From: Dictyostelium discoideum
Taxonomy: Eukaryota
Reading direction: 5' to 3'
Assembly (NCBI GenBank): GCA_000004695.1
Contig: CM000151.3
Coordinates: 3,712,001 to 3,776,000, forward strand
DNA: 64,000 nucleotides
How positions within the stretch are numbered: the stretch's first letter is position 1; every line of letters starts with the position of its first letter. The notes under the pieces were generated by a model. That model did no database searches. It was not told the origin of the DNA and saw nothing but the letters and a program-made list of their open reading frames with translations. This document shows positions 8,546 through 64,000 of this stretch, in pieces. The translations under genes and the position numbers were made by a program.

Positions 8546-8977
8546 ATGTCAGCACCATTATCACCTTCTCCAACAGTTGTAAAATTATCACCAGAATGTC
8601 AACAATATTATCAAGATGTTAGAATTAAAAACAAATATCAAGGTGTAGTTTATAAAATTAATAAAGAAAGTAATCAAATGATAATTGATAAAACATTTCC
8701 AAATGATTGTAATTTTAATGAATTAACTCAATGTTTTAAAGAAAATGAATGTTGTATTATCGTTTTTAAATATGTAATTTCAAATTCACAATCAAAATTA
8801 TTTTTTATTTATTGGGGTTCTGAAACTGCACCACAAACTGATAAGGTTTTATACAGTAACGCAAAATTAACTTTAGCAATAACATTAAAAGGTATTGATA
8901 TTAAAATTGCTGGCACTAAAAAATCTGAATTAACTGAAGAAATTTTTAAAGAAAGAGCCATACCAAAACAAGCTTAA
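8546..8977 (+). CDS. ADF-H domain protein, cofilin family, tandem paralog (143 aa)
   Basis: Clean ATG. Motifs [12 protein letters not shown] and [13 protein letters not shown]. It has the same architecture as the 7728 gene, 400 bp downstream. Confidence 0.85.
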
Positions 8978-9082
8978 AAAAATAAAAAAAAAATAAATAA
9001 AAAAAAAAAAAAAAAAAAAAAACATATATTTTTTAGTTTATTATTACAATTAAAATACATAAAATTATTATTAGTTAATTAT

Positions 9083-10555
9083 TTAAATAAAATTAATTTT
9101 TATAAATTTTGAAATATTATTTAAATTATTTTTTGGATAATTTTTTGAAAGTGTTAAAGTTTCCAATTTACAAGGTAGATGATCACCATTTAAAGGATAT
9201 TTAAAGGAGATACCAAATTTTAAATGTTTAATATTTGAATTTGAAATTGCACCTTTGTCAATTGGTTGATTAAAAGAATCACCATAGGTAAGATTAGTTA
9301 TTGAATTTGAAATAAATGAATTTTTTAAAGGTTGATTAAAAGTATTACCAGTATCTAATGATTGGATTGTTAAAGGTATTGAAATTGCAAAATCAATTAT
9401 ATTATTAAAATTTGAAGAGAATTTTAAATTTTTTATAGTTGAAGGAATACCATGTAAAACTTTATCAACTTCTAAAGTTTCAACAGATTCACCAATTAAA
9501 TGTAAACTTTTAAAATAATAACCAATTGAAACTGATTTTAAATTCTTTGGGAATACAACATCTTGCAGTGAACAAGGACTAAATTTAATTGATTCTAAAT
9601 TGCATGGTAAAACGTTATGCCCAATTGGATAGTAATAACTTTTACCAAGATCTAATGATTTCAAAGAGTATGGTAAACTTCCTTTATAAATTTGTTGAGA
9701 AAAGTGTTGACCCAATTCTAAAACTTCCAAACCTTGAGGTAAAACACCAACATAAATTGATTTATTAAAATTACATTGAAATCTTAATTCTTTTAAATTT
9801 GGTGGTAATAATGAAACCCTTTGTTTTTCATCATAAATCGATTGATTAAAACCTTTGAATTTTAATTTTTCAATTGATTTTAGTAATTTAAATTCTTGAT
9901 TTAATAAAAATTGATTCCATTGTAAGCCAAGTTCAAGTACTTTTAATTTACTTGGTATTGAATTTGAATTTATTAATTTATTAAATGAATCACCTAATAT
10001 TAAAACCTCTAAATCATTTGGTAAACTACCTATTTCAATCAATTGATTAAAAGAATTTCCAATTTTTAAATATTTCAAACCCAATGGTAAACTTGTGAAT
10101 GGAATTAATTCTTGATTGAATTTATCGCCCAATGTTAATGATTTCAATGATTTTGGTAACATATTTTGATTTGATAATTTTTGATTAAATGAATTTCCAC
10201 CCAAATCAATTGTAATTAAAGATGTTGAAAAATTTGTTAAATAAAATATTTTATTAAATGAATTTCCAAATTTAATTGATTTAATTATTAAATCATTCCA
10301 ATTATTATTATTATTATTATTTTTTAAAAATGATTCTTCATTTATATTGTCATCATTAAAATAATCATTAAATGTTATTTCTGATATATACTCTTTAAAT
10401 TTAATTTCATTTAATTCTTTTAAACTTTTTAAATAATAATGATAATGTTTATCTAATAATTTCATTTGATTAAAAATTTCTTTTTTTAAAAATATATTTC
10501 TAAAAATATTTAAAAATAAATCTCCACCATCATTCTTTACTTTTCTTTGATTCAT
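9083..10555 (-). CDS. FNIP-repeat-containing protein (490 aa)
   Basis: Repeated approximately 22-aa units (...LP.SLK.L.LG..FNQ.I...) characteristic of Dictyostelium FNIP repeats; single ORF. Confidence 0.8.
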   Translation of the reverse strand: MNQRKVKNDGGDLFLNIFRNIFLKKEIFNQMKLLDKHYHYYLKSLKELNEIKFKEYISEITFNDYFNDDNINEESFLKNNNNNNNWNDLIIKSIKFGNSFNKIFYLTNFSTSLITIDLGGNSFNQKLSNQNMLPKSLKSLTLGDKFNQELIPFTSLPLGLKYLKIGNSFNQLIEIGSLPNDLEVLILGDSFNKLINSNSIPSKLKVLELGLQWNQFLLNQEFKLLKSIEKLKFKGFNQSIYDEKQRVSLLPPNLKELRFQCNFNKSIYVGVLPQGLEVLELGQHFSQQIYKGSLPYSLKSLDLGKSYYYPIGHNVLPCNLESIKFSPCSLQDVVFPKNLKSVSIGYYFKSLHLIGESVETLEVDKVLHGIPSTIKNLKFSSNFNNIIDFAISIPLTIQSLDTGNTFNQPLKNSFISNSITNLTYGDSFNQPIDKGAISNSNIKHLKFGISFKYPLNGDHLPCKLETLTLSKNYPKNNLNNISKFIKINFI

Positions 10556-10936: not shown

Positions 10937-12295
10937 TTAATTATAATAAATTATCTGAATTTTTTTATTATTTAGATTATTATAATTTTTTAATAAATTT
11001 AAAGATTGGAAAGAATTATGAAACATTAATATTTCTATCGAAGATGGTAAATGATTTAAATTGATTTCTTTTGAATATAAAGGACCAAACTTTAAATGAG
11101 TTAAACCATCAGGTAAACAATTTGCATTAATTTGTTGATTGAAAAAGTGACTAAATATAATTGATTTTAAATTTCCATTCTTTGGTAAACTAAATTCATT
11201 CAATGGTTGATTCCATTTTAGTCCAAAATCGATTTCAGTTACTGAACAAGGTATTTGTTCCATTGAGATTTCTCTATTAAATTGCACACCGAATTTAACT
11301 TTTAAAACTGAATTTGGTATAGTTCCAACCATTATCTCATCGTTAAAATATTTATCAAATTTAAATATTTTAATTGAATTTGGATATTTATTAATTTTAT
11401 TATTATTTTTATTATTTACATTATTATTTTTATTATTATATACACTATTACCACCAATTTTTAATTTTTCAACACCATTTGGTATGTATTGAATTGGTTG
11501 ATTATAGGATAAACCAAATGATATTGATTTTAAATTACCAGATAATGGTAAAACACCCAATGATAAAGGACAATTGAAATTTTTACCAAATTTTAGGCAG
11601 GTTAGACTCGGTGGTAATGAATTAATTTGAATATCTTGATTAAATGATTCACCAAATTCCAATGAAGTCAATGATGATGAATTTGGTGAGAATGAATTTT
11701 GATTAATCGCTTGATTAAATGAATAACCAAATGTTATCTTTTTTACAGAGTTTGGGAATATATTATTATTATTATAATTATTATTATTTTTAAAATTAAT
11801 TAATGATAATGGTTCGTCAAAATAAAAACTAAATGTAATATGTTGTAAATATTCTCTATATTGAAAATTAAGTAACGATTTTAAATCATTAAATTCAAAA
11901 CTTGAATAAAGGTTATATAAACGTTGATGAAATAGTATTTCATTCTTTAAGAAAAAGTTTCTCCAAACTTTCCAAAATAATAATTCTTTATAATCAGTAT
12001 TATTTGAATTATAAATTGTAAATTTTGAATCAGACATTGATATAATTTTAATATTTCCAACATTTTCATTTGAAAATGAAATAATTTTATCTTCAATTAA
12101 TTTTTCATTATTTAAATTTAATAATGATGATTCACATGATGACGATGACGATGATGATGATGGTGTTGATGTTAATGTATATGGTGATGAAGATGAAATA
12201 TTTGATTTTTCCATACAATTTAATTTTCTTTTTTTATCACTTCTATTATCAATATTATTATTAATATTATTTGTGTGATTTGAAAAATTAATAAA

Positions 12296-12350
<55 letters not shown>

Positions 12351-12499
12351 GATTGTTGTTGATGAATTTTATTAAAATGATTTATAGTGGTTGTATTATT
12401 AAAATTATTATTATTGCTATTATTTAATTGAGTTTCCGTTGTAATTATTGTATTTGTATAATAATTTGTATTTCTACTTTTAAAACGACTAAACTTCAT
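10937..12499 (-). CDS. FNIP-repeat-containing protein (520 aa) with N-terminal poly-N/poly-S low complexity; tandem paralog of 9083..10555
   Basis: FNIP units (ITFGYSFNQAI.., LEFGESFNQDI.., LKFGKNFNCPL..). Same strand as its neighbour. Confidence 0.8.
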
Positions 12500-47989: not shown

Positions 47990-48094
47990 ATGAATAGACC
48001 ACCACAAGACGTAGAATTTAAAGCTGGTAAAGCTAAATTAACAGGTACAACAGTAACATCAGATTCAAGAAAGGGTTACTTAAAATTTGGTGTT
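47990..48094 (+). CDS. adrm1: Proteasomal ubiquitin receptor Rpn13/ADRM1, exon 1 (start of Pru domain: [29 protein letters not shown])
   Basis: ATG at 47990; donor gtt|gtatgt at 48095. Compare the Rpn13 Pru domain LVEFRAGKM..KGTTVTPDKRKG. Confidence 0.75.
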
Positions 48095-48275
48095 GTATGT
48101 TTTTTAAAGAGAAAAAAAAAAAAAAAAAAAAAAGCAACACAATATAATACAATAAAATAAAATAAAATAAAATAAATAAAATATAATATAACATAACATA
48201 TAATAATATAATAAAATAAAATGCATATTTATTAACATTTTTTAATTATTTATTTAAATAATAATTTATATATAG

Positions 48276-48519
48276 ACACCAGAAGGATTAACATGTGTTC
48301 AATGGAGACCAAGAGATTCATCAGCATATGAAGATGAATTTTATTTTGCACCAGGTGAATCAAAATTTATCAAAGTACCTGCATGTAAAACTGGTAGAAT
48401 GTATTACTTAAACTTTTCAGGTTCAGATCAAAAGGAATTCTATTGGTTACAAGAAGCAAATGTAGAAGGTGATGCTAAAATTGAAAAAGCACTTAAAGTT
48501 ATTGAATCATATATTCCAG
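48276..48519 (+). CDS. adrm1: Rpn13/ADRM1, exon 2 (Pru domain ...[39 protein letters not shown]...)
   Basis: Acceptor tatatag| at 48275, in frame with ORF 48399..; donor cca g|gtaatt at 48520 (phase 1). Confidence 0.8.
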
Positions 48520-49053
48520 GTAATTTTTTTTTTAAATTAATTAATTTATTTATTGGTGTTTTATTTTTATATACATTTTTTTTTTTTTGTTTTTTTTGTT
48601 TATTATTTTTTGTTTCTATGAAGGTGTGAATATACATAAACGATAATAATAGCACTCAAATACTTACAACACTTATAAATATATTCTTTTAATAGACTTG
48701 TAAATAATATAAAATAAAATGAAATATGTGAAAAATTAAATAAAATAAAATAAAATAAAAATAATAATAATAATAATAATAAAAATAAAACAAAATTTAT
48801 AAATAGTAATAATAAAGATGAAAACAAATGGAACAACAGTGACAATAATGGAAAAAAAAATAAAAAATCATATAACTAAATAATGTTAATAGACCCACCT
48901 TTTATTATTTTTATATAAAAAATCAAGAACTTTTAATTTGTTTTATACTCTTATTATTGAAAGTACTAATGAATCTTTTTTTTTTGGTTTTATTTTATTC
49001 TTTTTTTTTTTTTTAATGCACTTTTCTTTTTCTTTTTCTTTTCCTTTTTTTAG

Positions 49054-49568
49054 ATGATGATGATGATGAAGAAATGGTAGTTGATACACCACCACCAACA
49101 ACAACAATAAAACAAGAACCACCTAAAAACCCAACAATAAATGAAGTTTCACTAAGTCAACCAAAACCAACTACAACTCCACCACCATCAGCAACCAATT
49201 TAGATTTTATTAAAGATCTTTTTTCAAATTTACCAACACAACCAAAACAACCACAAATTACATTGGGTAAAATATTGACAGCAGAGAATTTAATACCATT
49301 CTTAAGAGAGAATCCAGAGATTAAAAAAGATTTAATTCAATATTTACCAGAGGAATATCAAAAGGATGAGAATATGATTAATGAAGTTTTACATTCTGCT
49401 CAATTTTTACAATCAATTGAAACCTTAGATTATGCAATTCATGAAGGTCATGGTCCTGAAATTGTCTCTCTTTTAGGTTATGAACCATCAATTGCTTCTC
49501 AAAGAGGTGTTGAGGGTTTCTTAACAAATATTCAAGAAGGTACAAATAAAAAGAAAAATAATAAATAA
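49054..49568 (+). CDS. adrm1: Rpn13/ADRM1, exon 3 (acidic linker plus C-terminal DEUBAD domain)
   Basis: Acceptor ttttttag| at 49053 restores the frame into ORF 49074..49568. The intervening intron is unusually long (534 nt). Confidence 0.75.
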
Positions 49569-49740
49569 TTAATTAAAATTGTATTATCAAAAATAAAAAA
49601 AAAAAAAAAAGAATAATAAATTCTAATTTATTTGGGTTTTATATTAAAACTCTTTTTTTTTTTTCTATTTGTTTACTATAATATATTTACACAAAGGAAG
49701 GTGGTTGTTGATGTTACATATTTTTTTTTTTTTAGTATTC

Positions 49741-50153
49741 TTATTTTATATTTTCATTATTAAAATTATCAGTATTATTATTATTATTAATATTATTATT
49801 ATTTTCTAAACTATTTTGTACAAAAGAAAAATCATTTTGTTGAAGTTGTTGTGGTGTTGGATTAGATGCGGGTGGAGGTAAAGGGCCATTACCTTTAGAT
49901 GAATAAATTGAAGGTTCTGTAACTATTAAATGTGGTGATTGAATTTCTGATGGTGGTGGTAATGATGTTGATGTTTGTTGTTGTTGTTGTTGTTGTTGTT
50001 GCTGTTGTTGTTGTTGTTGTTGTTGTTGCTGTTGTTGTTGTTGTTTCTTTTTTTGTTGTTGTTGTTGATAAAGTACAAATAACATTTTTTGTTCTTCTAC
50101 AGAACAATCATCAAATAATAATTCTGGATTCCTAAAAAGTTCATGAATTGTCA
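49741..50153 (-). CDS. ABHD-type hydrolase gene, putative exon 3 (poly-Q, Pro-rich and Asn-rich C-terminal extension)
   Basis: Only if the a|gtatgt donor at 50280 and the catattag| acceptor at 50154 are used. The phase is consistent and the frame stays open for 137 codons. Otherwise the protein ends ...PKGPESM*. Confidence 0.45.
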
Positions 50154-50179
50154 CTAATATGAAAAAAAAAAAATGAATG

Positions 50180-50246
<67 letters not shown>

Positions 50247-50280
50247 TAATAATAATATTAAATAATATTAAATTACATAC

Positions 50281-50990
50281 TTTCAGGACCTTTAGGATCA
50301 TTTGAATCATTTGAATCATCTTGATTTGGTTTTAAAGTATTTTGAAAGAATATACAAACCGATTCTAAAAAGAAATTTGGTCTTTCGCTATTATGACCAC
50401 CTTTTAATAATAACCTATTCTTATCACCATTATATTTTTCAAATAATTTCTCAGAATGATGTGGACGTACGAAATTATCAGATTCACCATGAGCAAATAG
50501 AGCGGGTATGTAAACTTGATCGGCAATATTTAAAACATCCAATTCTTTTATATCGAAATGAGCCCTCTTTTTAATTGAACCTCTAACCATTTTCAAACCT
50601 AATGAGATCATAAGTTTTGGTAATTTTTGAACGGCGGAATGTACCAATTCCTCTGCGACTTTATATAATGATGAAAAGGGTGAATCTAAAACCATACCTG
50701 CAATTGAAGGATCATCACGTGCATATAGGATTGATGTAACAGCACCCATACTTCTACCCCACAATCCAATGGTTGATATTTTGCCAGTATCTCTTAAATG
50801 TTTGACAATCACTCCAACATCTTCCTTTTCAAAATATCCCAATGATACATATTGTCCACCACTTAATCCTGATCCACTAAAATCAAATACCAATACCGTT
50901 ATATTCATTGGTAATAAAGTTCTAACGCATTCCATTGCATCTAACCTACATCCACTATTACCATGACAATAAATTACACATGGTTGTTTT
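50281..50990 (-). CDS. ABHD-type hydrolase gene, exon 2 (..KQPCVIYCHGNSGCRLD..; nucleophile elbow GRSMG; HGESD)
   Basis: Acceptor aaaag| (minus) joins in phase. Catalytic GxSxG and an Asp/His-containing C-terminal part are present. A possible donor a|gtatgt overlaps the stop at 50273. Confidence 0.8.
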
Positions 50991-51090
50991 CTTTTTTTTT
51001 TTTTTAAAAATAATATTAAAAAAAAAAAAAAAAAAATTAATAAATTGATTTCTATATTTATTTTATTTTATTTATTTTTATTTTACTTAC

Positions 51091-51698
<608 letters not shown>

Positions 51699-52399
51699 CC
51701 TCTTTTATTTTTTTTTTCTTTTTTTTTTATTTATACTGGAAAAATTATATTACTTTTTATTTAATAAAGTGTGTGAGTGTGTGTATATGTGTGTATATAT
51801 ATTTTGTATCTATGATATTATTATTTATATTGTGTGATGGTAGATTAAAAAAACAAAAATGTTACACACTAAAATTTAATTATTTAAAAAAAAAAAAAAT
51901 AAAAAAAAAATAAAAAATAAAAAAATAAAAAAAGTTATAAGGAGTTGGTGTGAATGAAAACAAAAAAAAAAAAAAAAAAAAATTTAGGTAAAAATTGTGG
52001 TGTTATTAAAACAAAATTATTAAAAAAAAAAATAAATAAATAAAATTATTAAGAATTTAATAACCAAAAAAAGTGTAAATTACAAATTATAGTTTTATTT
52101 TCCAAAAACACACAAGATTGATATGTTGAAAACCACTAACAACTATAACTCCTTTTAATGTTTGGAAAAAAAAAAAAAAACAAAACAAATTATAGTAATA
52201 AAAAAATCACAAAAAAAGATATATTGCGTGTGTATTTATTTATTTATTTTAAATTTGAATAAGAATAGCAAATAGTTTTTTTTTTTTTTAAAAATTTTTC
52301 TAATTTCTTTTTTTCTAATTTCTTTTTTTATTTTTTTTTTATTTTTTTTTATTTAAATTAATTTAATTTTAAAAATTTTTTTTTTTCTTGAACGATTTC

Positions 52400-52431
<32 letters not shown>

Positions 52432-53351
52432 ATTTTTTTTTTTTTATTTTTATTTTTGTTTGTTTTTTATATTTGGTTTGGATAAAAATAATTTTTTTTT
52501 TGAAAATGATTTATTGGTGGGTGAAAAAATTGTATTGTTATAATAATCAATTTGATGATCAACTATTAATTATGCAACCAATTTTTTTTTTTTTTTTTTC
52601 TGTGAACCCACTCTTTGTAAATGTGACCCACCAAAACGCACCAATGATATAAAACTAAAATTACATTATTGTTGATTTATTTTTAAAATTTTATAAATAA
52701 TAAAAAAAAAAAAAAAAATCAGCATTTTGTGCTCTCTGTTATCGAATTCGCACCATCACAATTTTTTTTTTTTTTTTCATTTTCCAAAAAATAAAGATTT
52801 ATTATTATTATTATTATTATTATTAATAATTAATTATCAATCTCCTCCCTCAGGCAAATGAATTTTTTTTATTTTTATTTTTAATTTTTTATTTTTAATT
52901 TTTTATTTTTAAATATTTGAATTTTAGTTTAAAAGATAGAATATAAATAATTTTGTTAATGCACCAACGATTGAACAAAAAATATTTTAATAAATTCACC
53001 ATTAGTGAGAACAGCACTGACTTACCTCCACTATCACATACCATTGATTCTTTTTATATTATTTTATTTTATTTTATTTTTATTTTATTTTAATTTTATT
53101 TTTATTTTTTTTTTTTATTTTTATTTTATACTATTTTTATTTTATTTTATTTTATTTTTATTTATTACATTTTTATTTTATTTTAAAGATAATTATTTGA
53201 ATTTTAGAAAAAAAAAATTTAGATAAGATTACTCTTTTTTTATTTCATTTACAAATTGTAAAATTGGGATTTATTTTTGGTTGGTTTAATATTTAAATTA
53301 TAATTTAATTTTTGTAATTTTAATTACAACCACAATTGTTTGAACCTCCAG

Positions 53352-53566
53352 TTAAAATGGAACCCCCTCCAAGCTTCCATAAGTTTCAACAAGAATACCA
53401 CCAGGGTTACGACCAATTCCACCGAGAAATCCTGGATTGCTAATGCTAATGCCGCCACGGCGTTCAATTGAATTCATTGATTGTAAAGAAGATAATGAAT
53501 TTGATAATGATGATAAATTATTTGATTTCGAAATTGATTTAACATTACTAATTGATGAAATTAAAC
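53352..53566 (-). CDS. HssA/2C/7E family protein, exon 2 ([71 protein letters not shown])
   Basis: Acceptor atatag| (minus) at 53567-53568; 88-nt intron; stop at 53352-53354. Confidence 0.7.
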
Positions 53567-53654
53567 CTATATAAAATTATTATTAAATTTTTAAAAAACA
53601 AATAATTTAAATATTTTTTTTTTTTTTTTTTTTTTTACAAAAAATAAAGCATAC

Positions 53655-53667
53655 CTAAGATTGTCAT
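53655..53667 (-). CDS. HssA/2C/7E family small Ser/Gly-rich protein, exon 1 (MTIL, phase 1)
   Basis: ATG ACA ATC TTA G|GTATGC on the minus strand. The family-typical N-terminus MTIL(A/G)[15 protein letters not shown] is reconstituted after splicing. Confidence 0.65.
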
Positions 53668-53773
53668 TTTTTGATATTATTTAATAGTATTATTTGTTTG
53701 TTCGTTTTGGAATATTAATAAAAAAATAAATAAATAAAAAAGTATTTATCACTACGTTATCAAACAGGGTCTG

Positions 53774-53805
<32 letters not shown>

Positions 53806-54024
53806 ACAGCTGTGTTATTTTTATTTGTGTGCAAATATAAAATTTAATATAAATTTTTGTTTTTGTTTTTTGGACCCCCTTTTTAAAAAGGGGTTAATAT
53901 ATTTTATTGATGTAGTTAATTTATTATCTTTTGAAAACAATAATTTGATATATTAATCGAGAGTGATGGAAGATTATAATCATATCGAGGACAGCCAAAC
54001 GGAGATTTCTATTCAAAAGCATAA

Positions 54025-54083
<59 letters not shown>

Positions 54084-54501
54084 ATTTTGAGTAATTAATG
54101 AGGTTTTTGATAAAAATTCATTTTCTTTATGATTAATCTTTTTGATTGAATGATTTTTTTTATTTTTTTATTTTTTTTTAAATTTATTATTATTTAAATT
54201 TTCTTATCCAGGGATAATTTAATTTGGAATTTTTTTTTTTTGTGATTTTTTTTTTTTATATTTAAAAGACAAACTTGTAATTTAAAGTTACAACTCTTAT
54301 TAATTTTTTAAATAAAGAACAACTTTGAAAAATAATAAATTTAAAAAATAATTTTAAAAAAAGTATAATTAAATAATTCTATTTTTTTTTTTTTTTATTT
54401 TACAAATTAAAAAATTGGGTTTTATTTTTGGTTGGTTTAATATTTTAATTATAATTTAAGTTTGTAATTTTAATTACAACCACAATTGTTTGAACCTCCA
54501 G

Positions 54502-54660
54502 TTAAAATGGAACCGACTCCGTGTAAAACAGAACCAATGATTACACCAGTACCAACAAGAACACCACCAACAAGACCACCAACTCCACCGAGTAATCCTC
54601 CATTTCCACAACCACCACCACATTGAATTGAATTCATTGATTGTAAAGAAGCATCCTCAC
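54502..54660 (-). pseudogene. 5'-truncated second copy of an HssA/2C/7E family gene (...[50 protein letters not shown])
   Basis: The 3' coding region and about 130 bp of 3' flank are near-identical to the 53221..53352 flank of the intact copy. Similarity stops abruptly at 54660, where the complex repeat block begins. No MTIL exon is present. Confidence 0.5.
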
Positions 54661-54664
54661 CCTT

Positions 54665-56654
54665 TTATGATGTTTTTGTATGATTGGATTTTTAAATTTT
54701 AAAGTGAGAAAAAAATTTAGGAACTTCGGACGAAAGTTGAAAATTTTTTTTTTTTTTTTTTTTCCGGCAAAAATGAAAAATATTTAATAAAAAAAAATTG
54801 AGCGAATATAGCCACTTCCACAATATACATATAAAAGAGCTTTATTTTTTGTATTTGTTAATTTTAATTAATATTGAGATATAGTAAATTTTGAGGCTTG
54901 TCAACAACGAGAATCGATGCCTGAATCTGAGGAAAAATAAAAATCTATGGTTTACCGGTGACTCGACCAATGAGTAATGGTAGACGTAGAATTAAATTCT
55001 AAGTTGAAATCACTTGATCCGGTTTATCTACGGGGTCATTAAGGTACCAAAAATTAAAATTACTGAAAAAAAAATTTTAAAAAATTTTCAAAAATTTTTT
55101 TATATGGAGAAATTTTTTTTCGGAAAATCGAAAAAAATTCTGCGCGTAAATCGTCTCGTTAAAATTTAATTCTTTTTGAGTATGTTAATGATCTATCGTG
55201 TATCTAACTTCTGTATTTCGCTTTTTGCACTCAATTTTTTTTTATTAAATATTCAATCGAATCTTTGGCGGGTGGTAAGTGAAAAATCACCATTTTTCCC
55301 AAGTTTTTTTTGGTGTAAGGAGGCTAAGTAAAAAGTCCCTCGTGTTCACTCGACCGACGGTTCCTAGTAAGCTTTCCAGAGCATTTGGGATAATCTGACA
55401 CAAGATCGTATTTTAAAGGGGGGTACTGGACCCCCTAAAAAATTCGCCAAGTTGACACACCAAAAACAGTGTTTTTTCGTGGATTTTTCAAGGAACTTTA
55501 TAGATATTTTAATTAACGAAATTGAGTGAATGTAGACCCATAAAAGTAGCAACTAGACTCAATGAGAGATATTCTGACACATTTTACCAAATAGCTTATG
55601 TGCATATAGTGAATATAAAGACTGGGGACGAAAAGTGAAAATTTTCCAATAAATTCAAAAATTGGTGTATTTTAGCGAAAAATTTAAATGGTGTCGTTCC
55701 TTATCAATCAAAGTTTTTTTAAAAGATAGATATTTTAATTTTACACTTACTGTTACCTCACGGCAGAGTCAACCAAGTAACACAATTTTTTATTTAACTC
55801 GGAAGTTCGTAAAAATATGACATTGGATCCTCATTTACAGATTACAGTGGTTTTATGGTGAGTCGACCGTGAGGTAACTGTAATTAGTTATATTCTTGGC
55901 GATGTTAATGTATTTTTCCGTTTTTGCCTAGGGGGTCACGATCAAAACTTATTAAAATTTTGGCGCCAAAAAATTTTTCATATAAAAAAAAAAAAAATTA
56001 ATGTGAGAAATTTCAATTTGGAGGTTCGAAAAAAATTCGAAAAAAATATGTACTATTTTTTTATTCCAATGATTTTTAGATATAATATAGCTGAAAATGA
56101 GGGCTATCTTTTGTATGTCTTACTTTTTAAATGGCAAGTTAAAAAAAAAATTGGTTTACAAAAAACTTTCTCAAGTACCCCCTATTTTTGGGGGTAAAAA
56201 AGTGCAAAATTTCACTGTAACTTTCATAAATATTACTCCTATTTAGTTCACTCGACCGACGGTTCCTAGTAAGCTTTCCAGATGTACTGACACAGCCTCG
56301 AAACAACGCGCGTAGTCTGGCGGGTCAAATAGACCCCTAAAAAAATTCTGAAAAAATCGCTGTTTTTTGGTGTTTTTTCGTAGGTGATAACTTTTCATTA
56401 AAATAAAAGGAATATTACTCGTAGGATTTAAAAACGTATATGTTTTTAAACATTCTCAAATTTATAGAAAATTTATAGGAAATAGGAACAATTTACTTAT
56501 GAATGATTTTTAAATATAAAAACCCCGATCCATTTTTGAAAAATCGATTTTTTTTAAATTTTTAGCGAAAAATATTTAAATTTTTAAAATGACTTTAAAT
56601 TTGAACCGGACTTTGATTTTTATAGATTACTAGTCATTTGACATCAACACATCA
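54665..56654. repeat. Complex GC-richer non-coding repeat block with internal direct and inverted repeats, abutting the N gap
   Basis: A 37-nt direct repeat gttcactcgaccgacggttcctagtaagctttccaga at 55344 and 56246. The motif cccctaaaaaa(a)ttc follows both copies. A 16-nt inverted repeat tactgttacctcacgg / ccgtgaggtaactgta at 55755 and 55868. No ORF longer than 65 codons. Confidence 0.5.
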
Positions 56655-56754
56655 NNNNNNNNNNNNNNNNNNNNNNNNNNNNNNNNNNNNNNNNNNNNNN
56701 NNNNNNNNNNNNNNNNNNNNNNNNNNNNNNNNNNNNNNNNNNNNNNNNNNNNNN
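56655..56754. other. Assembly gap (100 N)
   Basis: Run of n characters in the sequence. Confidence 0.99.
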
Positions 56755-56885
56755 AAAATTGGGGTGCACCAAAATTTACATCAGCAGAGAGATTTGAAGC
56801 ACAATTTAGTAAAATTAAAGACCTTTTGACAAACAATACAAACAACCAAGATCAACATAAATTTGAAAGAGTAAAAAAAATATTA

Positions 56886-57287
56886 ATGGCAACATTTTTA
56901 GATAATTTTAACAATCTAAAAGAAAAAGATGATGACAATAATGATTTAATTTTAGGGCAAATAATTAAAAAAAATGAAAATATTTATTTAAAAAATAATA
57001 TTTTATCAGACATTAACTTGCATTACAAAAACATTGAAAATATTCAATTTCATAAATCAATTAAAAATTTAAAAGAAATATATAATGTTGGTGATGGAAT
57101 TGAAGTTGCCTCAGAAAATTCATTAACTGGACGATGGAGTGCAATAATTATTGCTATTTGTTTAATAGAATTAAAAAATAAAAAAAGTGCACATTCTATT
57201 TATATACAATACTTTGATAAAGATACAGGTGATCAAAATAATAAGTACCACTTTTTAAGAAAAAGCTTTTCAAGTATAACATATTAA
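56886..57287 (+). CDS. Orphan ORF (133 aa from the first ATG) immediately downstream of the assembly gap
   Basis: Open frame bounded upstream by tga at 56823; coding status and completeness unknown; may be an exon of a gene interrupted by the gap. Confidence 0.3.
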   Translation: MATFLDNFNNLKEKDDDNNDLILGQIIKKNENIYLKNNILSDINLHYKNIENIQFHKSIKNLKEIYNVGDGIEVASENSLTGRWSAIIIAICLIELKNKKSAHSIYIQYFDKDTGDQNNKYHFLRKSFSSITY

Positions 57288-57396
57288 ACACATTAATACC
57301 AATACAAATCGATTCGTCTAACTATCTTATAATTTATAAGTGCCATGACCAATTTTCAATAAGTAAAAAAAAAAAATGAAAAAAATTCGTTGAACT

Positions 57397-57598
57397 CACA
57401 GCGAAGAAAAAACCACCTTTAAATTCGCTTTAAATTAAATTTAAATTTGCTTTAAAGTCCTGAATTAAAGCAATTTTAAAGGTAATTTTAAAGGTAATTT
57501 TTAAGGTTACTTTAAAATTACCTTTAAAATTACCTTTAAAATTACCTTTTTAATCGCTTTAAAAGCGAGGTCCTGAGTTCGAAGCCGTTATTTAACGG
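57397..57598. repeat. Outer terminal inverted repeat, left arm
   Basis: Reverse-complement match to 62690-62902. Rich in the motif aaaggtaatttt. Contains the B-box-like gagttcgaagcc. Confidence 0.7.
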
Positions 57599-57796
57599 AT
57601 AAATTTTTTAAATTTTTTTTTTTAATTTTTCAAAAATTACCAAAAGGGATTCGATCCCCCGACCCTCTATTAAAGGGTAGTCTCATCAACCATTACACCA
57701 TTTGATTGCTTTGATGAAAAATTTAAAAATGATAGAATATTTTATCCCCATTTTTTTGTTCTAAAATTAGATCTTTTTTATTAAAAACCTTTAATT

Positions 57797-58010
57797 TATG
57801 TTTAAAGGAAATTTAAATTCACTTTAAATCTACTTTAAATCCTATTTAAAATTAATTTAAAATAAATTTTAAAGGTATTTTTAAATGTCTTAAAAATTAT
57901 CTTAAATTTACCTTAAAAATCACCTTTAAAATCACCTTTAAAATCACCTTTAAAATTGCTTAAAAATTTATTTTAAAGCAAATTTTAAAGGCATTTTTAA
58001 ATATCTTAAA
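57797..58010. repeat. Inner inverted repeat, left arm ((tttaaaggt/aatttta) periodic motif)
   Basis: Reverse-complement match to 59701-59930 over more than 200 nt with few mismatches. Confidence 0.7.
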
Positions 58011-58259
58011 AATTACCTTAAAAATTACCTTAAAAATGAATTTTTTAAACGCGGCTTTAAATTCAATTTAAATCCAATTTAAATCAACTTTTCTTTAAAT
58101 TTGCTTTAAAGGTGCATTTTTCTTTGCTGTGCTTATTTACATAACTTTTACATTTTTACGTAACTTTTTCTTTTTTTTTTTTCTTTTTTCCAATTTTCTT
58201 TTTTTTCGGTTGGAAATTATAGGATTTTAAAAAAAAATTAAAAAAATATTATAAAAAAA

Positions 58260-58541
58260 ATGACTCACAATAATTCTGCATCATTTGAAACACCAAATAG
58301 AAGTGGTAATTATGTAAATAGATCATCTTTAACTTCACCAACATCACCAATAACACCAATCACATCTCTTATTTTAAATCAAACTGATACCTCCATAGGT
58401 CCACAACGTACTGTTAGAAGACAACAAAGACCTCAAAGACCAAATGCAAGTCATCCACCAACAACAAATATTGTAGAAAAAATATTGGTGTATGAAACAT
58501 TGCACAGAAATTGTGTTTCTCAATACTATGCAACTGGTAAG
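58260..58541 (+). CDS. Gene inside the IR-bounded element, exon 1 (S/T/P-rich N-terminus ...CVSQYYATGK)
   Basis: ATG at 58260; donor aag|gtaaga at 58542. Confidence 0.5.
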
Positions 58542-58549
58542 GTAAGATA

Positions 58550-58594
<45 letters not shown>

Positions 58595-58635
58595 AAGAGA
58601 CTAATTAAATTAAATAAACAAAAATAATACATAAG

Positions 58636-58854
58636 ATTTCCTCTCGTTTTATTAGGACCTGTATATTAAATGCTGGCGGTACAAATTCAAATGAAAATAA
58701 AGTTGTTCTATCCAAATTGGTTAAATGGGTCAACAATAAACGTGGTAACACACGTATTAAAGCCCTAAATACCCTTAGACTTTTAGTTAGAAATAAAGTA
58801 GAACAGTTCAGCGAGTTGCTCTCTCAGGTTCCACCATTAATGGAGTATGAATCG
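58636..58854 (+). CDS. Gene inside the IR-bounded element, exon 2 (ISSRFIRTCILNAGG...KVVLSKLVKWVNNKRGNTRIKALNTLRLLVRNKVEQFSELLSQVPPLMEYES)
   Basis: A phase-0 acceptor cataag| at 58635 is needed for frame continuity; the nearer ttattag| at 58660 is out of phase. Donor tcg|gtatgt at 58855. Codons are GC-richer than the genome norm. Confidence 0.4.
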
Positions 58855-58963
58855 GTATGTAAAAAAAAAAAAAAAATAAAAAATAAAAAAAAAATAAAAA
58901 AAAAAAAAAAAAAAAAATAAATTATTAATAATTTGTTTTTTTAATTTTTTAATTATTATTTAG

Positions 58964-59233
58964 ATAACTCCTTTTGATTTGGCCACTCTTATTATCGATA
59001 CAGTTACCTTAGAAGCTTTTGACTCCGATCCTTTTGTAAAGTTCTTAGTGTCTCAATGCTTTACAATTGAAGAAAAAGAATGGTACAGCGGTTCCAAACC
59101 TCTTATTTCTTTAATAGTTAAAGCATTGCGTGGTGTTTCTCAAAAGTTCATTGACTCTCCTGATGAACTTACTTACACTGAAAAGGTTGCTTTTGAATTC
59201 ACTTCAATACCTCTTTATGCTCCACTAAATTAA
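58964..59233 (+). CDS. Gene inside the IR-bounded element, exon 3 (ITPFDLATLIIDTVTLEAFDSDPFVKFLVSQCF...LYAPLN*); ARM/HEAT-like helical repeats
   Basis: Acceptor tatttag| at 58963, in frame with ORF 58979..59233. Confidence 0.5.
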   Translation: MTPFDLATLIIDTVTLEAFDSDPFVKFLVSQCFTIEEKEWYSGSKPLISLIVKALRGVSQKFIDSPDELTYTEKVAFEFTSIPLYAPLN

Positions 59234-59499
59234 ATCGTTTAAATAAAAAAAATTAATATGATTTCACATACTCAACTTTAATTTTTTCTTTTTTTTTTAA
59301 ATCTTTTTTTAATTTTTATTTTAAATTATTTTTTTTAATTTTTATTTTTAAAGTGATATTATTAATATATCTTATCAAGTTAACTTTATAATATAAATTT
59401 ATAAATGCACTTTTAAATTGAATTTTATAAATATAATTAATAAGAATACTTAATAAGTGTACTTACAAAGAGTACATTATAATTATAATTAGTAATTAC

Positions 59500-59702
59500 G
59501 CTTAATAATTATACTTAATAAGTATATTTAATAAGTATACTTAATAAGTATACTTAATAAGTATATTTAATAAGTATACTTAATAAGTATACTTAATAAG
59601 TATATTTAATAAGTATACTTAATAAGTATACTTAATAAGTATATTTAATAAGTATACTTAATAAGTATACTTAATAAGTATATTTAATAAGTATACTTAA
59701 TA
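59500..59702. repeat. Tandem array of about 16 copies of a 13-nt palindromic unit (TAATAAGTATACT/TAATAAGTATATT) with a 39-nt super-period
   Basis: Directly visible. The unit contains the palindrome AGTATACT. A related palindromic copy lies at 60040-60095. Confidence 0.85.
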
Positions 59703-59930
59703 ATATTTAAAAATGCCTTTAAAATTTGCTTTAAAATAAATTTTTAAGCAATTTTAAAGGTGATTTTAAAGGTGATTTTAAAGGTAATTTTTAAGGTAAT
59801 TTTTAAGATAATTTTTAAGATATTTAAAAATACCTTTAAAATTTATTTTAAATTAATTTTAAATAGGATTTAAAGTAGAATTAAAGTGAATTTAAAGTGA
59901 ATTTAAATTTCCTTTAAACATAAATATTAT
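59701..59930. repeat. Inner inverted repeat, right arm
   Basis: Reverse complement of 57797-58010. Confidence 0.7.
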
Positions 59931-60137
59931 TTTTTTCGTTAAAAAAAAAAAATTCCAAAATTTTTTATTTTTTTTTGTGTTAAAAAAAAATTCCTAAATT
60001 TTTTTTTTTATTGTATTTTTTTTCATCACACCATTATAAATTCTATGTACTTAATAAGTATTACTTATTAAGTATACTTATTAATATATATTAAAAAGAG
60101 TACTTGGATTTAAAGGTGCTTTAAAGTGTTGATTTTC

Positions 60138-62470
60138 GCCGCTGTGTGGATTGGTATCGACTCTACTGATTGTTTGGTCAATACTTCTTGGAATGTTCCC
60201 AGTACTTGAGGAAACATATGACGATGATGACGAGGAACTTGAGCTTGAATCATCGGATACCAAGTTGCTGATCTCCAGATTGGGAAGATCAGTATTATAG
60301 AAACCTTCTTCGAACTGGATGAGTTCATCTTCTCCAGTATAGAAGGCAAAAGAATGGGTGGTGGAAAGGCCAGACATTACTTATATTGACTCCAATCGAG
60401 GTGGAGTGCATTCATTCTGATTGTTGAGTAGTTGTTCGTTTGATGGTTGAGGTGAGATGCGAACAGATCCATCTGTATTTGACCGAATTGAAGTTGCCAG
60501 TTGTAACTCTTGATTACTCTGGTCGATGATATGTGATTCATCTCTGAAAGACGACTGAGGTGGTCGGCTTTTACATTATTCATAATATATATATATATGA
60601 TAATATAAATTAAATTTTTAAATCTTATTCATAATATATATATATATATATATGATAATATAAATTACCAGCCTTATTCTTAATCACAAGCTTGTGTTCG
60701 AGTTTACTTAAAAAATACTACAAATATGTATGTTGTAACTCTTCCACTAAAGAATCCAGCTCTCCACGGTATGCTTGCTGTAGTTCTGCCTCATGAGCCT
60801 GGAGACGTTCCTCAGGAGACAAGCTATGGCTGAACGAATTAGACAGAATAACACCACGAGGGATACCGTAGTGGGATAGGTTAGATGCCTTCATAACAAA
60901 CCAGAAGTTTAACAGCCAACTCACTACCATGTCATTGTTAGAGACTCAAAACTAAATTAATTTAAAGTTAGTTTGAGCTCAACAACATAACAAATTCGCG
61001 CATCTCCATGTAAAAATATTTCATTTAATTTTTGTTTTTTATTTTTTATTTTTTCAGTCAAAAAATAAAATTAAAAAAATTAAATAAAATTAAAATTTAA
61101 AAAAATAATAAAAATTCTGATTTTCGGTTTAGTTAGATAACGCCCTTACATTCAATTATCTGTTTTATGTATGTTTACTTTTATGATGTTAGTCTTTCAC
61201 TCTTTCTATCCTTCATATGGAATGACATTAGATTAAAGATTGGACTAGTTCGGTTAAAGATTGAACAAATGTGACAATGGATTGAAGATTAGTGTGAGAA
61301 ACTTTTACAGTCATCGTATCCAGACGCCTTGTGGTCAATACGACCATTCTTAACAACCAGACTGGTGATCTCATTAATCAGCGTTTTATCGTGAGTAACA
61401 CGACCAGCGCGTTTAGCCGCTTCAGGTAGGACTTCACCGTACAGTGTCAACGCGATTCGGCTGTAGTAACGAACCCAAACTTGTTACGCACGTCATCGTA
61501 GAAATAACTACCACGAGGACGCAGTGGATTGTTAACCATAGCAGCTGCATTTTTATCCACCTTCACCTCTTCAACAATCCAGTTAAAAATATGTTTGAAT
61601 GGATCAATACCTTGTAACGGCGAATTTAATCAGGTTAGTTTCATTACAACCCCCTGCATCTACTGTAACCATATCACGAATGTAAGTAAACACTAAACCA
61701 ATGGCATCTCTACCGATCGCTTCCGAGGGATCCATCCCTAGTAGAATGTGTGCCCCTTCGTTAATTTCTCATGTCGATCTTTTGGTATGTGTCAGCCGAT
61801 ACTGTAACCGTCTTTGGAACTCAGTCCACAGTGGGTCACGTTCATAGTCACGGATAATGTTGTTTAGCTCAGTTGACAGAGGTGAACGTAAAGAACCTGA
61901 TGTCCAGCGGTTAAAGAAGTCACGGTCTGCTTCTTTAATTTTAACACCGGAGTTCTGCAATGCGTCACGCAGCCATTCTTTATCCAAACCAAGCTGACGA
62001 TAACTCCACGTCCCGTTAATCATAATAAGCGCACCTTTCTTACCGATGAGTTTGATTAATACGGTACGTAGTTCTTCCTGGTTTCTCAGGTCTATGATGG
62101 TCTTTAACCCAAAGATAAGACGGCAGTAGATCGCGAATCTCTTTTAATCGGTCGAAGTTAGACCGTCAGTAGTGCGTCATCCTTCGTAATCAGGTTAATG
62201 CTGATGGTATCTGACGAACCAGACTTACCGGTCTGACGGGGATTAACATGTAGTCGATGTGGTTATAGAAGCTCCAGATCAAACTCAGGTTAGCACGGTT
62301 TGCTTTAAAAGGACGCGGCGTTGCACCCGCAGAGAATCTAACGACCTCACGATAGTAATACCATGGGTTGAATCGACATTCGATAGCGAATTAATTTCTT
62401 ATGACAGATCGGTGGCAAATGGATCCACTGACTTAATTCCTGTTGAAGGAGACTAAGCATGAATGTACAG
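60138..62470 (-). mobile_element. GC-richer (about 45-50% GC) exon-like blocks of a degenerate integrase/RNase-H-like gene, possibly a transposase, interrupted by AT-rich intron-like spacers
   Basis: Minus-strand open frames at 62023-61769, 61610-61300, 60930-60718, 60583-60377 and 60377-60081 sit in different phases. Motifs NNVKADHLSR (like N..ADALSR at the RNase H/integrase junction) and IDHKASGYDD (like RT/IN D.K.SGY). A GTAAAAG donor-like site falls exactly at the GC-to-AT transition at 61300. An AT-rich spacer spans 60940-61300. Confidence 0.4.
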
Positions 62471-62689
62471 TTCTCAACACCCATTTCTTTATAAAGATTT
62501 AGAAATTCAAGTTAATCAAATAATATTAATATTGTATTTGTATTCAAAGTGAAAAACTAAATTTTTCGAAAAACGAAAAACTTCGTAAAGTATCAAAATA
62601 CTTTACAAAAATTCAAAAAAAAATTCAAAAAAAAATTCAAAAAAAAATTCAAAAAAAAATTCAAAAAAAAAAAATTTAAAAAAATTTAT

Positions 62690-62902
62690 CCGTTAAATAA
62701 CGGCTTCGAACTCCGGACCTCGCTTTTAAAGGATTAAAAAGCTAATTTTTAAGGTAATTTTAAAGGTATTTTTTAAGGTGATTTTAAAGTAAACTTAAAA
62801 ATTACCTTTAAAATTACCTTAAAAATTGCTTTAATTCAGGACTTTAAATTCGCTTTAAATTAAATTTAAATTTGCTTTAAAGGAGGATTTTTCTTCGCTG
62901 TG
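62690..62902. repeat. Outer terminal inverted repeat, right arm
   Basis: Reverse complement of 57397-57598. Confidence 0.7.
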
Positions 62903-62939
62903 GAATAAGCTGAGTTATTTCGAAAAAAGTTTATTTTTT

Positions 62940-63990
62940 TTTGACAAATTTTGCATGTTTTTTTTTTTTTTTTTTAATAAAACACATTATTTAAAACAAA
63001 AATTTTAAATAATATAAAACAATATTTGTTAAGACCTATCGTAGAATTAAATTTGGTTGTATTTATGGAGAAATAAAGAAAATATAAAAAAAAATGAACT
63101 TCGAAAAAAAAAAAAGGAACTTCAAAAAAAAAAAACTACATAAAATTTTTGTTTTAAATAATGGGGGACCTATCAGTGAATAATTGAATTAATTTTGAAA
63201 AAAAAAAGTTATTTTGAAAAAGATCGAGTTATCCCGGAAAAGATCAATCTTTTCGCGAAAAATTTTTCATTGGCCATATTATTTTTTTTTTTTTTAATTT
63301 TTTTCATTTATTCACAATTAAAATAAAAAATATAATAAATAAATAAATAAATAAAATAAATAGTATGATTGACAAAAAAAAATCAAAAATACCAGGGCTC
63401 AAATAAAGGATTTATTTTTTATATGTAGTTTTTTTTTTTTAAGTTCCTTTTTTTTTTCGAAATTCATTTTTTTTTATATTTTTTTTATTTCTCTATAAAT
63501 ACAACCAAATTTAATTCTACGACAGTCTTTACAAATATTGTTTTATATTATTTAAAATTTTTGTTTTAAATAATGTGTTTTATTAAAAAAAAAAAAAAAA
63601 AAAACATATGAAAAGTGAAAAATTTTTCAAAAAAAAATAAACTTTTTTCGAAATAACTCAATTTATTCCGGGATAACTCGATCTTTTTCAAAATAACTTT
63701 ATTTATTCAGAATTAATTCAATTATCCACTGATAGGTCCATTATTTAAAATTTTTGTTTTAAATAATGTGTTTTATTAAAAAAAAAAAAAAAAAAACATA
63801 TAAAATTTGAAAAAATTTCGAAAAAAAAAACTTTTTTTGAAATAAATGAATTTATTCTGAGATAACTCGATCTTTTTTAAAATATGCTGAGTTAATTATA
63901 ACAGAAATTTTTACTTTATTTTTTATTTTTTATTTTTTATTTTATTGACTAAATTATTTTTAAAAAAACAATTACAGATAATATTGAAGC
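62940..63990. repeat. Cluster of inverted and direct repeats at the window end (unit ...ttaataaaacacattatttaaaacaaaaattttaaataatataaaacaatatttgt...)
   Basis: 62960-63130 is the reverse complement of 63455-63595. A further partial copy lies at 63720-63790. Interspersed motifs ataactcgatc and ttcgaaa. Confidence 0.6.
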
Positions 63991-64000
63991 AGGTGAAATA

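Follow-up and report, generated by a model that had tools for sequence, protein, structure and literature searches.

A truncated HssA/2C/7E gene copy beside a decayed tandem array and an assembly gap in Dictyostelium discoideum

We analyzed a stretch of 64,000 nucleotides (nt) of Dictyostelium discoideum DNA (GenBank assembly GCA_000004695.1, contig CM000151.3, positions 3,712,001 to 3,776,000 of the forward strand), here called the window and numbered from its first letter. Within it, a copy of an HssA/2C/7E-family gene ends abruptly, and the DNA changes to a block of different composition that runs into an assembly gap. An earlier reading, made from the sequence alone, had pointed to this second family copy, truncated where it meets a block of distinct composition, itself ending in a gap, and our analysis bears this out. 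We consider the most probable explanation (probability about 0.55) to be an ordinary one: the copy, named copy 2 below, is a pseudogene fragment, left when a non-homologous rearrangement at the margin of a repeat region severed a family member and joined it to a decayed tandem array.

According to this explanation, the window would cross the edge of a repeat-rich region of a D. discoideum chromosome, and the last unique feature before that edge would be a short head-to-tail cluster of two damaged minus-strand HssA/2C/7E genes. Of these, the upstream one, copy 2, would have been cut by the rearrangement at 54651/54652, which would have left its last 60 codons and the 3′ flank. This remnant would then have been joined to an old, decayed, GC-richer array of units of about 900 bp, each with two ACTCGACC… motifs, and the array would extend to the gap, with a mosaic of transposon pieces beyond it. 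The junction is probably a real genomic break-and-join and not a clean transposon insertion, and the array together with the adjacent multi-copy element probably caused the stop of the assembly.

Copy 2 (54470-54651, minus strand) is only the 3′ fragment of a family gene, 60 codons plus the stop, according to its translation, Pfam, and an alignment to a related protein. It scored 35.4 bits against Pfam PF05710 ("Coiled"; cut-off 21.4) and covered only profile positions 26-76 of 90. The best match among 1.84 billion representative proteins was an 86-amino-acid (aa) family member of D. purpureum, P0125, of which residues 29-86 were aligned; a cluster-mate of P0125 carries the name "HssA/2C/7E family protein." The promoter, the exon encoding MTIL, the intron, and approximately 28 codons are missing from copy 2. 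The CGCN C-terminus is retained, and a TAA in the same frame is located five codons upstream of the fragment, within the block. The frame reads through position 54502 (ATT TTA ACT) and ends with the stop at 54470-54472. The coding part had previously been placed at 54502-54660; the family assignment and the truncation stand, but both ends have to be moved, the coding sequence being 54470-54651 and the break 54651/54652. Because the stop is at 54470-54472, the sequence taken for 3′ flank includes the last 33 nt of copy 2 coding sequence. Copy 2 is a dead gene fragment.

A word-indexed protein search with the copy 2 peptide returned no HssA relatives, and this index misses dictyostelid proteins. 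For a neighboring hydrolase gene, its best match was 79% identical, yet the D. purpureum orthologue has 89% identity over 230 aa. Since the hydrolase orthologues of D. purpureum and D. discoideum were not returned, negative results of this search are unreliable for dictyostelid proteins. Exact-protein look-ups with the window ORFs 10937-12499, 49074-49568, 51087-51698, and 54470-54637 gave no recorded protein.

The second family member in the window, copy 1 (53352-53667, minus strand), was recognized by reading of the sequence and by Pfam PF05710 (35.0 bits, cut-off 21.4; residues 1-69 on profile positions 1-73 of 90). It consists of exon 1 (ATGACAATCTTAG, encoding MTIL; 53655-53667), a phase-1 intron (53567-53654), and exon 2 (53352-53566), and its predicted product of 75 aa ends with LEGVPF and the stop. 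Copy 1 had been regarded as intact; it is instead frameshifted relative to the family. A net 10-nt length difference from copy 2, located in the Gly-rich core between conserved ends, shifts its frame, with a stop at 53352. The family's canonical C-terminus was found by three-frame translation and by a tblastn frame change at 53320-53370 (minus strand), out of frame with the upstream exon of copy 1. Thus, copy 1 keeps the N-terminal parts and the CGCN end lies out of frame; it may have become a pseudogene, or it may represent a shortened variant. The full-length architecture of the family (an MTIL or MTLF exon 1, a Ser-rich N-terminal third, a Gly-rich core, and a CGCN end) was found in neither copy. 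The reference length used for the family, about 86-92 aa, is the range in D. purpureum.

Next to these two genes, the window contains no other family member: tblastn detected HssA-family segments only at 53355-53570 and 54473-54652, both on the minus strand, and the only MTIL-exon pattern is exon 1 of copy 1. The two copies are arranged head to tail, 1150 bp apart. In the 7.2 kb sequenced beyond the gap (56755-64000), tblastn and a pattern search revealed neither HssA coding sequence nor an MTIL exon, the exon that had been envisaged there.

The copies are homologous over about 300 bp (53200-53491 versus 54350-54651), with an identity that changes from part to part in a mosaic fashion: 100% in the 26 nt that encode SLQSMNSI, 60% in the Gly-rich core, 95.5% in the final 44 nt of coding sequence, and about 90% in the further part. 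At the end of the homology, identity is 26 of 26 nt up to 54651 and then falls to a background of 55.6%, which places the break at 54651/54652. The spacers upstream and downstream of the two copies could not be aligned. The segments 53221-53352 and 54371-54502, said earlier to be near-identical, are indeed homologous, but their identity is 88.7% with two gap columns and 72% without gaps. A segmental duplication had been proposed on this basis; a recent one is not supported, given the short and mosaic homology and the unaligned spacers. Judged by their sequences, the copies appear to be two long-established members of a cluster, each with ends that were conserved or converted.

Tandem clusters of this kind were also seen in related genomes. 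D. cf. discoideum (locus L004) has six family copies 0.9-1.75 kb apart, mostly 0.9-1.3 kb, and in D. purpureum (locus L005) three HssA-family genes are clustered; a distance of 1150 bp is thus usual for clusters of this family, whose members are small Gly/Ser-rich Dictyostelium proteins. The pair in the window resembles HssA/2C/7E tandem clusters in that both copies pass the Pfam cut-off and in that the spacing of about 1.15 kb corresponds to that in L004 and L005. It differs from the family in that copy 2 has lost the first 28 or so residues and the upstream parts, and in that copy 1 loses the canonical C-terminus by the frameshift. The spacer between the two copies also contains an uninterrupted run of 59 A residues (54024-54082, within the region 54022-54083).

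We then turn to the DNA that adjoins copy 2. The block (54652-56654) was characterized as a non-coding, decayed tandem array by self-matches, motif counts, and scans for open reading frames (ORFs), Rfam families, and transfer RNA (tRNA) genes. It is about 2.0 kb long and, as noticed before, GC-richer than its surroundings: its GC content is 29.5% (30.6% up to 56400), compared with 15.6% and 12.1% in the flanking spacers and an average of 20.9% to the left of the block in this very AT-rich window. No sequence that could encode a transposase, reverse transcriptase, or integrase was found in it; the longest ORF has 64 aa. The six-frame translation is full of stops, tblastx between two units showed no frame-specific conservation, and tblastx against the fetched Dictyostelium loci, including transposon-rich ones, gave no similarity. 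A search of 50000-64000 at E ≤ 1 revealed no Rfam family within the block. The octamer ACCCATAA at 55536-55543 resembles DUSE, an element upstream of genes for small non-coding RNAs in Dictyostelium; as a single 8-mer it could be due to chance, and no Rfam family was detected downstream of it. There are no tRNA genes in the whole window, and thus nothing points to a tRNA-targeted insertion context of the TRE type.

Self-comparison revealed that the block, previously described as a complex repeat, is instead a colinear head-to-tail array with a period of about 900 bp, of which at least 2.2 units are visible before the gap. A motif of about 35 nt marks the unit starts at 54714, 55612, and 56512 (spacing 898 and 900 nt). 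Two longer self-matches are colinear with it: 54948-55140 matches 55848-56038 (63%, E = 1e-8), and 55344-55445 matches 56246-56348 (74.5%, E = 8e-14). The period is constant, three independent conserved islands being shifted by 898, 900, and 902 nt and having an identical order in each unit. Overall, the two full units are only about 53% identical. On its left side, at the boundary 54651/54652 with copy 2, the block is cut inside an array unit.

The second of these matches includes an exact 37-nt repeat, GTTCACTCGACCGACGGTTCCTAGTAAGCTTTCCAGA, located on the plus strand at 55344-55380 and again, 902 nt further, at 56246-56282. It also includes the cccctaaaaaattc module, which extends as cccctaaaaaattc…tgttttttcg over 55431-55479 and 56335-56381; both the direct repeat and a module ending with ttttttcg had been correctly recognized by the sequence-only reading. 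Since the surrounding units are only about 53% identical, the perfect run of 37 nt is not a chance event. It probably reflects local gene conversion or constraint on a putative protein-binding site.

The ACTCGACC… motif starts at 54961, 55348, 55861, and 56250, that is, twice per unit. These four copies are the only ones in the 64 kb (0.03 expected), and an inverted, degenerate fifth copy is present at 55747-55771. This fifth copy forms one arm of an inverted repeat (55747-55883) that was detected by complementarity and DNA folding; the other arm is at 55859-55883. The arms are two opposed copies of the signature motif of the array. An inverted repeat of 16 nt had been reported here; the repeat exists, but its arms have 25 nt with 84% complementarity and a perfect core of 12 nt. 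The predicted DNA hairpin has a folding energy of -23.7 kcal/mol (z = -4.8), and none of 200 shuffled sequences was as stable. We also considered a more far-reaching view, which we hold to be improbable: the block could be the visible edge of an unrecognized tandem array of about 900-bp units at the place where a chromosome arm meets a DIRS/DDT cluster, and GTTCACTCGACCGACGGTTCCTAGTAAGCTTTCCAGA and the ACTCGACC… motifs could be selected protein-binding sites, for example of a boundary or replication element, in a genome for which the published centromere analysis revealed no satellite-like repeats.

The right end of the block is the gap at 56655-56754. As described before, it consists of 100 Ns, and a scan for N runs showed that it is the only one in the window. 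To its right, fragments of multi-copy elements form a mosaic, among them a piece of a DIRS-1-type retrotransposon and a nested insertion resembling a miniature inverted-repeat transposable element (MITE). In this respect the locus is similar to the complex-repeat clusters of D. discoideum, which are mosaics of DIRS-1, DDT, Skipper, and Tdd fragments at the centromeric ends and at the border of the chromosome 2 duplication (PMC2665215). In these clusters, DIRS accounts for about 49% and DDT for about 19%, fragmentation is extensive, and unclassified non-coding multiplied pieces and unclosed gaps occur (PMC2665215). The block itself differs from them in three ways. It matches no element in the fetched loci; it has a GC contrast to its surroundings, whereas the unclassified pieces have none (PMC2665215); and it is a tandem array, whereas satellite-like arrays are absent from the published description (PMC2665215).

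An alternative to the break-and-join is that the block is such a complex repeat (a transposon that is non-autonomous or degenerate, or a piece of such a transposon) and was inserted into an intact HssA gene whose 5′ half is now hidden in the gap. The higher GC content of the block and its direct contact with the transposon mosaic are in line with an insertion, and the motifs in both orientations together with the hairpin are similar to the repeated binding sites in the subterminal regions of DNA transposons. The visible end of the block (CATCCTCACCC…) has no TG/CA, no poly(A) or poly(T), no terminal repeat, no target duplication, and no inverted-repeat partner in the window; the right end lies within the gap. 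The internal layout is a head-to-tail array of 900-bp units and not a transposon body, and the lack of coding capacity and the absence of an HssA 5′ part in the 7.2 kb past the gap also speak against an insertion. Furthermore, the block was found only once in the window, and no copy of it was detected in the fetched Dictyostelium loci (110 kb in total, of which about 66 kb are transposon-rich). This copy test has low power, as illustrated by a control: the mosaic segment 61216-62654 was equally without matches, and this leaves room for an insertion. The insertion of a repetitive element proposed by the sequence-only reading was therefore not borne out, with neither a second copy, nor an element end, nor the 5′ half of the gene found, although these negatives are weak. 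We regard the insertion as unlikely.

Relatives of the block were also sought elsewhere. The 37-mer and its 26-nt core gave 0 matches in scans of metagenomes, prokaryote genomes, and viruses. The whole block had no match in PLSDB by blastn, and thus contamination by a plasmid or vector is unlikely. A literature search for sequence strings of the block returned only a chance primer match in an unrelated paper. The array could originate from a transposon remnant, from a spacer of the type found in the ribosomal DNA (rDNA) palindrome, or from local sequence.

The extrachromosomal rDNA palindrome, of which a nucleus contains about 100 copies, offers one weak lead. Joins of the form "chromosome - junction - rDNA palindrome" have been described at chromosome ends and on the distal edge of strain AX4's chromosome 2 duplication, beside DIRS elements and gaps (PMC2665215). 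The palindrome spacer contains no transcription units besides the rRNA genes and has repeatedly duplicated segments, for example, loci about 762 bp apart (PMC5391098). The block could accordingly be a chromosomal piece or a relative of these spacer repeats, added where the chromosome broke in the HssA gene. The similarities to the spacer are the lack of coding sequence and the serial duplication of units of several hundred base pairs (PMC5391098, PMC2665215), and the junction, the gap, and the DIRS neighborhood at this locus are reminiscent of the described chromosome-palindrome junctions, including their unclosed gaps (PMC2665215).

We compared the block with 32 published palindrome primers. 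A short motif, CTACYRTTACCTCA, is common to the block and palindrome primers: primer Pal-27726-rev has TACTGTTACCTCA in common with 55748-55760, and primer cRT-PCR_Pal-26963-03 has GTAATGGTAGA in common with 54974-54984, so that the signature motif of the block is represented in both. The summed composition-weighted similarity of the primers to the block exceeded that to all 300 dinucleotide shuffles, and the sum of the top five was 113.3 for the block versus 97.2 ± 4.2 for the shuffles. However, one of 30 control tiles from the window scored as high as the block, raw word-length counts were no better than those of the controls, the matched motifs are on mixed strands, and no primer matched exactly. 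The B box (GTTCRANNC), which is enriched on the palindrome with 22 copies per 44-kb arm (PMC5391098), is absent from the block, all seven matches in the window being outside it. The period is also different (about 900 bp versus about 762 bp), and the comparison with the palindrome (AY171066) was made via its published primers. Primers from a telomere paper were unrelated to the block, and the palindrome primer pattern gave 0 matches in the public scans. A palindrome origin thus appears doubtful, even more so than the insertion of a complex repeat.

The junction might, finally, be an assembly artefact, either a chimeric clone at 54651/54652 or a mis-join in the conserved 3′ region of HssA that misplaced a contig composed of the truncated gene and the block. 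The distance to the window's single gap is 2 kb, regions of this kind had to be ordered by hand in the published assembly (PMC2665215), and the conservation of the HssA 3′ region between the copies (100% over 26 nt and 95.5% over 44 nt) invites mis-joins. A mis-join within a segment conserved in the family would relocate the junction, though, and not create it. The two sides of 54651/54652 have nothing in common that could mislead an assembler, and both are Dictyostelium-like in composition, with no vector, plasmid, or prokaryote match. We consider an artefact improbable. That copy 2 is still a working gene, which would use a putative new 5′ exon joined at an AG acceptor just upstream of GGTGAGGATGCT or an internal start (ATG at 54637, 55 aa), is very hard to believe despite a 55-codon open frame ending in the intact family C-terminus and the good conservation of the 3′ flank and of the final 44 nt of coding sequence, because the MTIL exon and the 28 N-terminal residues of the family are missing and an in-frame TAA is present five codons upstream of the fragment.

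Returning to the pseudogene fragment produced by a non-homologous rearrangement, four points weigh against this explanation. The other end of the block lies within the gap, and the data are compatible with a delimited insertion beyond which the 5′ half of the gene follows. A chimeric clone or a mis-join could have produced the junction. The evidence on copies of the block is confined to the window, the 110 kb of loci, and the public scans. The third array unit is backed solely by the 35-nt motif at the expected spacing.

The truncated gene at a repeat border is a known kind of feature in a published genome. For annotation, the HssA segment 54470-54651 is better treated as a pseudogene fragment, and the neighboring "intact" gene is frameshifted relative to the family. 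How all sequence to the right of 54651 is placed hinges on the unclosed gap. If the block were derived from the rDNA palindrome, the locus would be an example, at the sequence level, of a chromosome break inside a gene that was healed by palindrome addition. If the block belonged to a longer array, this would qualify the statement that D. discoideum repeat clusters are without satellites.

The repeat-derived right end of the window has 83-94% nucleotide identity to three D. discoideum assemblies (loci L001, L002, and L003). Its first component is a multi-copy element, R1 (56755-59705, plus strand), which is cut by the gap. The R1 ORF at 56757-57287 corresponds to the C-terminal portion of a protein that has about 760 aa and a Cys/His-rich N-terminus and that in L003 (8074-10531) is split into three ORFs of 251, 338, and 176 aa. 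The L003 ORF at 8930-9946 ends with …NWGAPKFTSAERFEAQFSKIKDLL, where the R1 ORF of the window begins. Since the ORF that is continued in the window starts, in L003, about 1.8 kb further upstream, the gap hides at least about 1.8 kb, unless the R1 copy in the window is truncated. Other R1 copies are at 8074-12114 of L003 (full-length) and at 9817-12423 of L001, and no Pfam domain was found in the R1 proteins. The R1 copy in L002 has a deletion of about 300 bp, which begins precisely where the window sequence resumes after the gap. We also considered the block as the 5′ part of R1 and rejected this, since the full-length L003 copy has no similarity to the block.

Nested in R1 is the 736-bp MITE-like insertion (57396-58131), which was delimited by empty sites in L001 (10810/10811) and L003 (10519/10520). 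It has the terminal inverted repeats CACAGCRAAGAAAAA…CACCTTTAAA (CACAGCGAAGAAAAAACCACCTTTAAA / CACAGCAAAGAAAAATGCACCTTTAAAG) and a 2-bp target duplication, CT. Further copies were detected in L002 (1835-2615 and 2747-3481) and in the window at 62655-62903. In the terms of the literature, it may be a thug or DDT-S type element. Its palindromic parts gave rise to sub-threshold Rfam matches to mir-548 and mir-3938, and it carries a B-box-like sequence, GTTCGAAGC, at 57577 and 62703.

The DIRS-1-type fragment (60147-60577, minus strand) was assigned by its identity to two loci. It is 88.5% identical to L006 14998-15458, which is located within a gene for 1275 aa with RVT_1, RT_RNaseH_2, and Phage_integrase domains, and 89% identical to L001 3874-4317. 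The segment 61216-62654 inside the mosaic, which served as the control above, comprises 1.4 kb with 42-46% GC and no ORF longer than 84 aa; it resembled neither the block nor any of the fetched loci. Pfam revealed no domain in the GC-rich region at 60.1-62.7 kb.

To the left of the HssA pair, synteny with D. purpureum (L005, GL870976.1, 3051-6394) is restricted to the Rpn13 and hydrolase genes (48002-51311 in the window) and ends before the pair. Past the hydrolase gene, D. purpureum has MoaE and G6PD, and the window has the HssA pair and the block. The three HssA-family genes of D. purpureum are on the Rpn13 side, and the pair in the window is on the side of the hydrolase gene. A weak Dicty_REP match below the threshold (14.9 bits) was obtained for the ORF at 51087-51698, which is actually an exon of the hydrolase gene, with 90% protein identity to D. 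purpureum.

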